Shown here: piece by piece, positions 16,606-19,600 of the stretch
Position numbering within the stretch: position 1 is the first letter of the stretch
Layout: every line of letters begins with the position of its first letter
IMG/VR virus record: IMGVR_UViG_2681813267_000002
DNA: 25,434 nt
Direction: 5' to 3' (one strand)
From: a virus
Lineage: Duplodnaviria; Heunggongvirae; Uroviricota; Caudoviricetes
Translations under genes and position numbers: made by a program
The notes under the pieces: model-generated
Database searches by the model: none
Told to the model about the DNA's origin: nothing
Seen by the model: the letters and a program-made list of their open reading frames with translations, nothing else

Positions 16606-19600
16606 ATGGGTAAAGGCAGCAGTAAGGGGCATACCCCGCGCGAAGCGAAGGACAACCTGAAGTCCACGCAGCTGCTGAGTGTGATCGATGCCATCAGCGA
16701 AGGGCCGGTTGAAGGTCCGGTGGATGGATTAAAAAGCGTGCTGCTGAACAGTACGCCGGTGCTGGACAGTGAGGGGAATACCAACATCTCCGGCGTCACG
16801 GTGGTGTTCCGGGCAGGTGAGCAGGAGCAGTCACCGCCGGAGGGATTTGAATCCTCCGGCTCCGAGACGGTGCTGGGTACGGAAGTGAAATATGACACGC
16901 CGATCACCCGGACCATCACGTCGGCAAACATTGACCGACTGCGTTTTACCTTCGGTGTACAGGCACTGGTGGAAACCACCTCAAAGGGAGACAGGAATCC
17001 GTCTGAAGTTCGCCTGCTGGTTCAGATACAGCGTAACGGTGGCTGGGTGACGGAAAAAGACATCACCATTAAGGGCAAAACCACCTCGCAGTATCTGGCC
17101 TCGGTGGTGGTGGATAACCTGCCGCCGCGCCCGTTTAATATCCGGATGCGCAGAATGACGCCGGACAGCACCACAGACCAGCTGCAGAACAAAACGCTCT
17201 GGTCGTCATACACCGAAATCATCGATGTGAAACAGTGCTACCCGAACACGGCACTGGTCGGCGTACAGGTGGATTCGGAGCAGTTCGGCAGCCAGCAGGT
17301 GAGCCGTAATTATCATCTTCGCGGGCGCATTCTGCAGGTGCCGTCGAACTATAACCCGCAGACGCGGCAATACAGCGGTATCTGGGACGGAACGTTAAAA
17401 CCGGCATACAGCAACAACATGGCCTGGTGTCTGTGGGATATGCTGACCCATCCGCGCTATGGCATGGGGAAACGTCTTGGTGCGGCAGATGTGGATAAAT
17501 GGGCGCTGTATGTCATCGGCCAGTACTGTGACCAGTCGGTGCCGGACGGCTTTGGCAGCACGGAGCCGCGCATCACCTGTAATGCCTGGCTGACCACACA
17601 GCGCAAGGCGTGGGATGTGCTCAGTGATTTCTGCTCGGCGATGCGCTGTATGCCGGTATGGAACGGGCAGACGCTGACGTTCGTGCAGGACCGACAGTCG
17701 GATAAGGTGTGGGCCTATAACCGCAGTAATGTGGTGATGCCGGATGATGGCGCGCCGTTCCGCTACAGTTTCAGCGCCCTGAAAGACCGCCATAATGCCG
17801 TTGAGGTGAACTGGATTGACCCGGATAACGGCTGGGAGACGGCGACAGAGCTTGTGGAGGATACGCAGGCCATTGTCCGTTACGGTCGTAACGTCACGAA
17901 GATGGATGCCTTTGGCTGTACCAGCCGGGGGCAGGCACACCGCGCCGGGCTGTGGCTGATTAAAACGGAACTGCTGGAGACGCAGACCGTGGATTTCAGC
18001 GTGGGTGCTGAAGGGCTTCGTCATGTACCGGGCGATGTCATTGAAATCTGCGATGATGACTATGCCGGTATCCGCACCGGCGGGCGCGTGCTGGCGGTGA
18101 ACAGCCAGACCCGGACGCTGACGCTCGACCGTGAAATCACGCTGCCATCCTCCGGCACCACGCTGATAAGCCTGGTTGACGGGCAGGGGAATCCGGTCAG
18201 CGTGGAGGTCCAGTCCGTCACCGACGGCGTGAAGGTAAAAGTGAGCCGTGTTCCTGACGGTGTTGCTGAATACAGCGTGTGGGGGCTGAAGCTGCCGACG
18301 CTGCACCAGCGATTGTTCCGCTGCGTGAGTATCCGTGAGAACGACGACGGCACGTATGCCATCACCGCCGTGCAGCATGTGCCGGAAAAAGAAGCCATCG
18401 TGGATAACGGGGCGCACTTTGACGGCGACCAGAGCGGCACGGTGAATGGTGTCACGCCGCCAGCGGTGCAGCACCTGACTGCCGAAGTCACCGCAGACAG
18501 CGGGGAATATCAGGTGCTGGCGCGCTGGGACACGCCGAAGGTGGTGAAGGGCGTGAGCTTCCTGCTCCGTCTGACCGTAACAGCGGATGACGGCAGTGAG
18601 CGGCTGGTCAGCACGGCCCGGACGACGGAAACCACTTACCGCTTCACACAACTGGCGCTGGGGAACTACAGGCTGACAGTCCGGGCAGTAAATGCGTGGG
18701 GGCAGCAGGGCGATCCGGCGTCGGTATCGTTCCGGATTGCCGCACCGGCAGCGCTGTCGCGGATTGAGCTGACGCCGGGCTATTTTCAGATAACCGCCAC
18801 GCCGCATCTTGCGGTTTATGATCCGACGGTACAGTTTGAGTTCTGGTTCTCGGAAAAGCGGATTGCGGATATCAGGCAGGTTGAAACCACAGCACGCTAT
18901 CTTGGCACGGCGCTGTACTGGATAGCCGCCAGTATCAATATNNNNNNNNNNNNNNNNNNNNNNNNNNNNNNNNNNNNNNNNNNNNNNNNNNNNNNNNNNN
19001 NNNNNNNNNNNNNGATTGCGGATATCAGGCAGGTTGAAACCAGCGCCCGCTATCTTGGCACGGCGCTGTACTGGATAGCCGCCAGTATCAATATCAAACC
19101 GGGCCATGATTATTACTTTTATATCCGCAGTGTGAACACCGTTGGCAAATCGGCATTCGTGGAGGCTGTTGGTCAGCCGAGTGATGATGCATCCGGTTAT
19201 CTGGATTTTTTCAAAGGCGAGATAGGGAAAACCCATCTGGCTCAGGAGCTGTGGACGCAGATTGATAACGGTCAGCTTGCGCCTGACCTGGCTGAAATCA
19301 GGACGTCCATTACGGATGTCAGCAATGAAATCACGCAGACCGTCAATAAGAAACTGGAAGACCAGAGTGCGGCAATTCAGCAGATACAGAAGGTTCAGGT
19401 TGATACAAATAATAACCTGAACAGCATGTGGGCTGTGAAGCTGCAGCAGATGCAGGACGGACGCCTTTATATCGCGGGTATTGGTGCCGGTATTGAGAAC
19501 ACCCCTGACGGCATGCAGAGTCAGGTGCTGCTGGCGGCGGACAGGATTGCGATGGTTAATCCTGCGAATGGCAACACAAAACCGATGTTTGTTGGTCAGG

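Follow-up and report, generated by a model that had tools for sequence, protein, structure and literature searches.

The J protein of phage lambda is represented by chain J of PDB 8iyk and is 1132 aa long. A J of the same type, 1165 aa in length, is encoded by the argW-side lambdoid prophage of Shigella sonnei chromosomes, in which the order K-I-J-stf-tfa runs to an IS1 copy. One such chromosome, CP019689 of strain 75/02, has 23 predicted prophage regions (PMC5447701). Duplications flanking scaffold gaps are a feature of short-read drafts, where overlapping contig ends are parted by a gap that has been estimated as positive. The stretch of viral DNA analysed here (25,434 nt, IMG/VR record IMGVR_UViG_2681813267_000002, hereafter the window) has the gene content of the argW-side prophage from K to the IS1 copy and is 99.9% identical to it in nucleotide sequence. 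The finished S. sonnei genomes differ in that they have no N runs, contain the 81 nt segment discussed below once, and have the allele of its left copy. In comparison with the scaffold-gap duplications the window shows no difference in kind: overlapping contig ends are separated by Ns, the break is in a stretch common to paralogous prophage genes, and the other gap in the record is also mis-sized.

Table 1. Positions in the window of the J gene, the repeated segment and the two N runs.
Feature	Position	Strand	Basis
Gene J, tail tip attachment / host specificity protein	16606..20256	+	1216 codons including 24 X as scaffolded; ORF list, translation
Last 81 nt of upstream contig, authentic J codons 753-779, allele ACAGCAC	18861..18941	+	Matches L015 copy A and L034/L036/L039
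Scaffold gap of 72 N, almost certainly spurious	18942..19013	.	Contig ends overlap by 81 nt in L001, L002, L015, L030 and L034-L043
First 81 nt of downstream contig, the first 34 nt with the paralogous-J allele AGCGCCC	19014..19094	+	36-mer in 31 IMG/VR contigs; L015 B/C, L030
Second scaffold gap of 376 N	24809..25184	.	L015 and L034-L043 have 311 nt of AT-rich sequence here

As written, J contains two copies of the 81 nt segment, one on each side of an N run (Table 1). The copies differ at three positions, 18890, 18891 and 18894 in the left copy against 19043, 19044 and 19047 in the right copy, which change one codon from Thr to Ser and leave the next codon silent. The spacing of the copies from start to start is 153 nt, so J stays in frame and the reading frame remains open throughout. 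A spaced repeat of this kind was found in none of 100 shuffled sequences and would thus not arise by chance. The original prediction had described this repeat with its mismatches, spacing and open reading frame, and the coordinates and translation bear out each of these points.

With the Ns and one copy taken out, the collapsed protein is a lambda-type J by several measures. Six Pfam domains are present (FNIII-A_GpJ, Phage-tail_3, Ig_J, Ig_J_second, Phage_Tail_Tip and Ig_GpJ_C), all scoring far over the curated cut-offs, and lambda J has the same series. Alignment to PDB 8iyk chain J scores 2131 bits and extends over the whole length. Residues 1–836 lie on lambda J without gaps and at very high identity, and residues 866–1164 align to lambda 838–1131. 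The statement in the original prediction that lambda carries the segment once is confirmed by this alignment, in which the 39-residue segment is present a single time in each protein. The distal fibre and receptor-binding part of the window J (approximately residues 837–1165) has diverged from that of lambda and is 33 aa longer, which is ordinary J mosaicism and has no bearing on the duplication. In the ORF map J is located after K and I and before lom, stf and tfa, in agreement with annotated relatives.

Close relatives of the window have the segment once. A 1201 nt query across the site had matches in 168 phage records and 4583 E. coli records, and all 60 of the phage and E. coli matches listed span 1048 nt, which is 153 nt below the query length. 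Likewise, the 25 best matches to a full-length J query span 3497–3498 nt. Thousands of assemblies encode a Tfa identical to that of the window (193 aa), and ten long NCBI chromosome records with identical Tfa (L034-L043, including CP019689) were taken as a near-identical set. These are 99.9% identical to the window on either side of the gap and the segment is single in 10 out of 10. In each of the ten, the part of the window preceding the gap extends to about locus position 3104 and the part following it begins at about 3024, an overlap of 81 nt. Three of these records checked site by site (L034, L036 and L039) have 5–6 differences from the window after the gap, three of which are the mismatch sites, where they carry the left-copy allele. 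The segment is also single in L001, L002, L015 and L030. Over the 998 nt preceding the gap, the IMG/VR record L015 shows 100% identity to the window, and the three mismatch sites are its only differences over 5795 nt after the gap.

The two parts of J, placed ungapped on the references, overlap by exactly the 81 nt, and removal of the Ns and one copy gives exact collinearity with relatives. The collapsed gene has 2336 nt before the gap and 1243 nt after it, less 81 nt, for a total of 3498 nt or 1165 aa. This is the exact J length across the close relatives examined, save for one chromosome locus with a split J; E. coli SY3626 and phage ev099 have J annotated at 3498 nt and 1165 aa, and J is called at 1165 aa in 9 of the 10 NCBI chromosome loci. 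The length of about 1165 aa put forward in the original prediction is thus that of J in close relatives. In the tenth locus (L037 771-4267, GCA_040188945.1) two products of 183 and 982 aa are called in place of one J. The split is either a frameshift or an assembly error, and it looks like a frameshift.

Independent assemblies of close relatives were also compared with a modelled tandem duplication, and a single copy was present throughout. None of 147 junction-crossing alignments, from 140 of the 143 loci fetched, matched the model, each having at most 3 gap characters across the junction zone. A search pattern in which a 23-mer of the segment recurs at a start-to-start spacing of 138–168 nt had no match in genome_contigs, viral_contigs or metagenome_contigs. 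As a positive control, the same pattern recovers the window across its Ns.

The three mismatches, for which the original prediction offered no explanation, can be traced to a paralogous J in the same kind of genome. A 36-mer with the right-copy allele is found exactly in 31 IMG/VR contigs, and the corresponding left-copy 36-mer in 102. In L015 the right-copy allele is carried by J paralogues B and C, and in L030 by the second J. Both alleles therefore occur within one record in L015 and in L030, the left in the window-type J and the right in paralogous J fragments. Apart from the three sites, the L015 paralogues are the same as the window-type J over a stretch of 94 nt (18850-18943 in collapsed coordinates), and they diverge from it at 18849 and again at 18944/18945. 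The last 49 nt of the stretch are identical in both J genes. Both contig ends of the window lie within these 94 nt, and from collapsed 18944 on the downstream contig follows its own prophage and not the paralogue. These occurrences show the right-copy sequence to be a natural allele, belonging to a paralogous J in another lambdoid prophage. Chance sequencing errors near the end of a contig are ruled out as the cause of the mismatches, since the exact natural allele is found in the 31 contigs and in co-resident paralogues. The break in repeated sequence is seen in the related records that hold both J alleles (L015 and L030) rather than in the window's own genome, in which the paralogue is presumably also present.

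Several IMG/VR records have single N characters that join successive fragments (7274 and 10455 in L015, 462 and 12034 in L030, and also L094, L022, L058 and L119). Among the fragments joined in this way are partial J-lom copies, two or three of them in succession. These look like concatenated or scaffolded repeat contigs rather than real tandem arrays.

The second N run of the window serves as a size control for the first. In L015 and the ten NCBI chromosome records, between flanks identical to those of the window, it is replaced by 311 nt of real sequence that is 32% GC and located downstream of tfa. The gap is therefore oversized by 65 nt, and the N runs in this record are rough size estimates. 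The possibility that the Ns mask real sequence at its exact length was considered and is ruled out, because the length of the second run differs from that in near-identical relatives. The size of the first gap is off by 153 nt, an error comparable in order to that at the second.

The J duplication is almost certainly an artefact of assembly and scaffolding, in which overlapping contigs were joined with Ns rather than merged. The collinearity and the single copy in relatives give strong support to the original prediction, which had favoured overlapping contig ends scaffolded with a false gap. Judged by these alignments, the real gene would be an ordinary single-copy lambda-type J of 1165 aa. 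The contigs are joined in the correct order and orientation, the spurious elements being just the gap and the redundant 81 nt. The duplication is of no biological novelty.

The window is a draft scaffold, assembled from short reads, of a lambdoid prophage whose host was probably Shigella sonnei or something closely related to it. Genomes of this kind hold several lambdoid prophages, the J genes of which have short near-identical stretches in common, and repeat-induced assembly breaks are typical at short repeats among paralogous prophage genes. The particular behaviour of the assembler was presumably as follows. J would have been broken within the 94 nt stretch common to a paralogous J. The upstream contig would traverse this stretch with the allele of its own prophage, while the downstream contig would begin 81 nt earlier with the allele of the paralogue before entering the unique sequence of its own prophage. 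Read-pair links could then have ordered the contigs rightly, with the gap estimated at +72 nt instead of −81 nt, so that the contig ends were left unmerged with Ns between them. That 153 is a multiple of 3 is then a coincidence with a 1 in 3 chance. This account draws on the single copy in all relatives, the exact length restored by collapse, the paralogous origin of the three differences and the imprecise gap sizes. The positions of the contig ends were used in an attempt to derive one k-mer size, and no simple rule fits. Beyond the last variant site the upstream contig continues for 47 nt, and the downstream contig has 29 nt ahead of the first such site, which is a misfit to a simple single-k de Bruijn rule.

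A genuine in-frame tandem duplication of 153 bp (51 codons), with 72 real bases lying under Ns introduced through low quality or masking, had been kept as a fallback in the original prediction. No comparison supports it, and it is considered highly improbable. The reading frame is kept, as such a duplication would require, and the 72 hidden bases, including the would-be junction, lie under the Ns and cannot be inspected. However, the duplication is absent from every relative, including genomes that are 99.9–100% identical on both flanks, and the spaced repeat is absent from the three collections scanned. Recent copies would be expected to be identical, yet these have three clustered differences that are exactly the allele of the paralogue, and length is not preserved at the other N run of the record (376 N for 311 nt). 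The structure of the protein also has to be considered. The unit that would be duplicated is residues 753–803 (51 residues), inside the PF24489 Ig-like domain at 718–818. This domain is approximately 100 residues, so a copy of half of it would make no new domain, which as a structural argument speaks against a functional length variant. There is very little chance that, in the source isolate, 51 residues of the second Ig-like domain of J are truly duplicated in frame and that one of the copies has been converted to the paralogue allele. If true, this would be a variant of tail-tip length or shape seen in no other sequenced lambdoid phage.

The paralogue allele in the first 34 nt of the downstream contig could also be explained by a chimeric scaffold, with its two sides from different prophages and the J as written a hybrid that does not exist. 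This is extremely improbable, because both sides are collinear with one prophage in the ten NCBI chromosome records, at 99.9% identity from K/I through J, stf and tfa to the IS1 end. Only three sites deviate, and from collapsed 18944 on the sequence is that of the same prophage. Overlapping contigs of a single prophage left unmerged at a mis-estimated gap remain the preferred explanation. The consequences are for annotation only: J of this record is to be taken as a protein of 1165 aa, and the 1216 codon ORF with its X residues should stay out of protein databases as a length variant. The locus is a clear example of how paralogous prophage tail genes break short-read assemblies and of how scaffolders leave flanking duplicates at gaps.

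Other features of the window were noted outside J. Upstream of nu1 there is an AT-rich ORF on the minus strand (201-626, 141 aa), which could be a putative cargo gene of the moron type. The lom-like ORF at 20327-20809 encodes 160 aa, shorter than the 199 aa given for both phage ev099 and E. coli SY3626. Among Shigella-type relatives its called length is 135, 144 or 160 aa, or there is no call. This variation in length suggests a decaying gene. Two clustered differences from finished genomes are found within the ORF, at 20365 and 20368. The end of the window (25387-25434) reads GGTGATGCTGCCAACTTACTGATTTAGTG..., which is presumably the IS1 terminal inverted repeat. In relatives the IS1 InsA gene begins 8 nt past the match to the last base of the window (L035 9387), so that a repeated IS1 copy is the probable end point of the scaffold.
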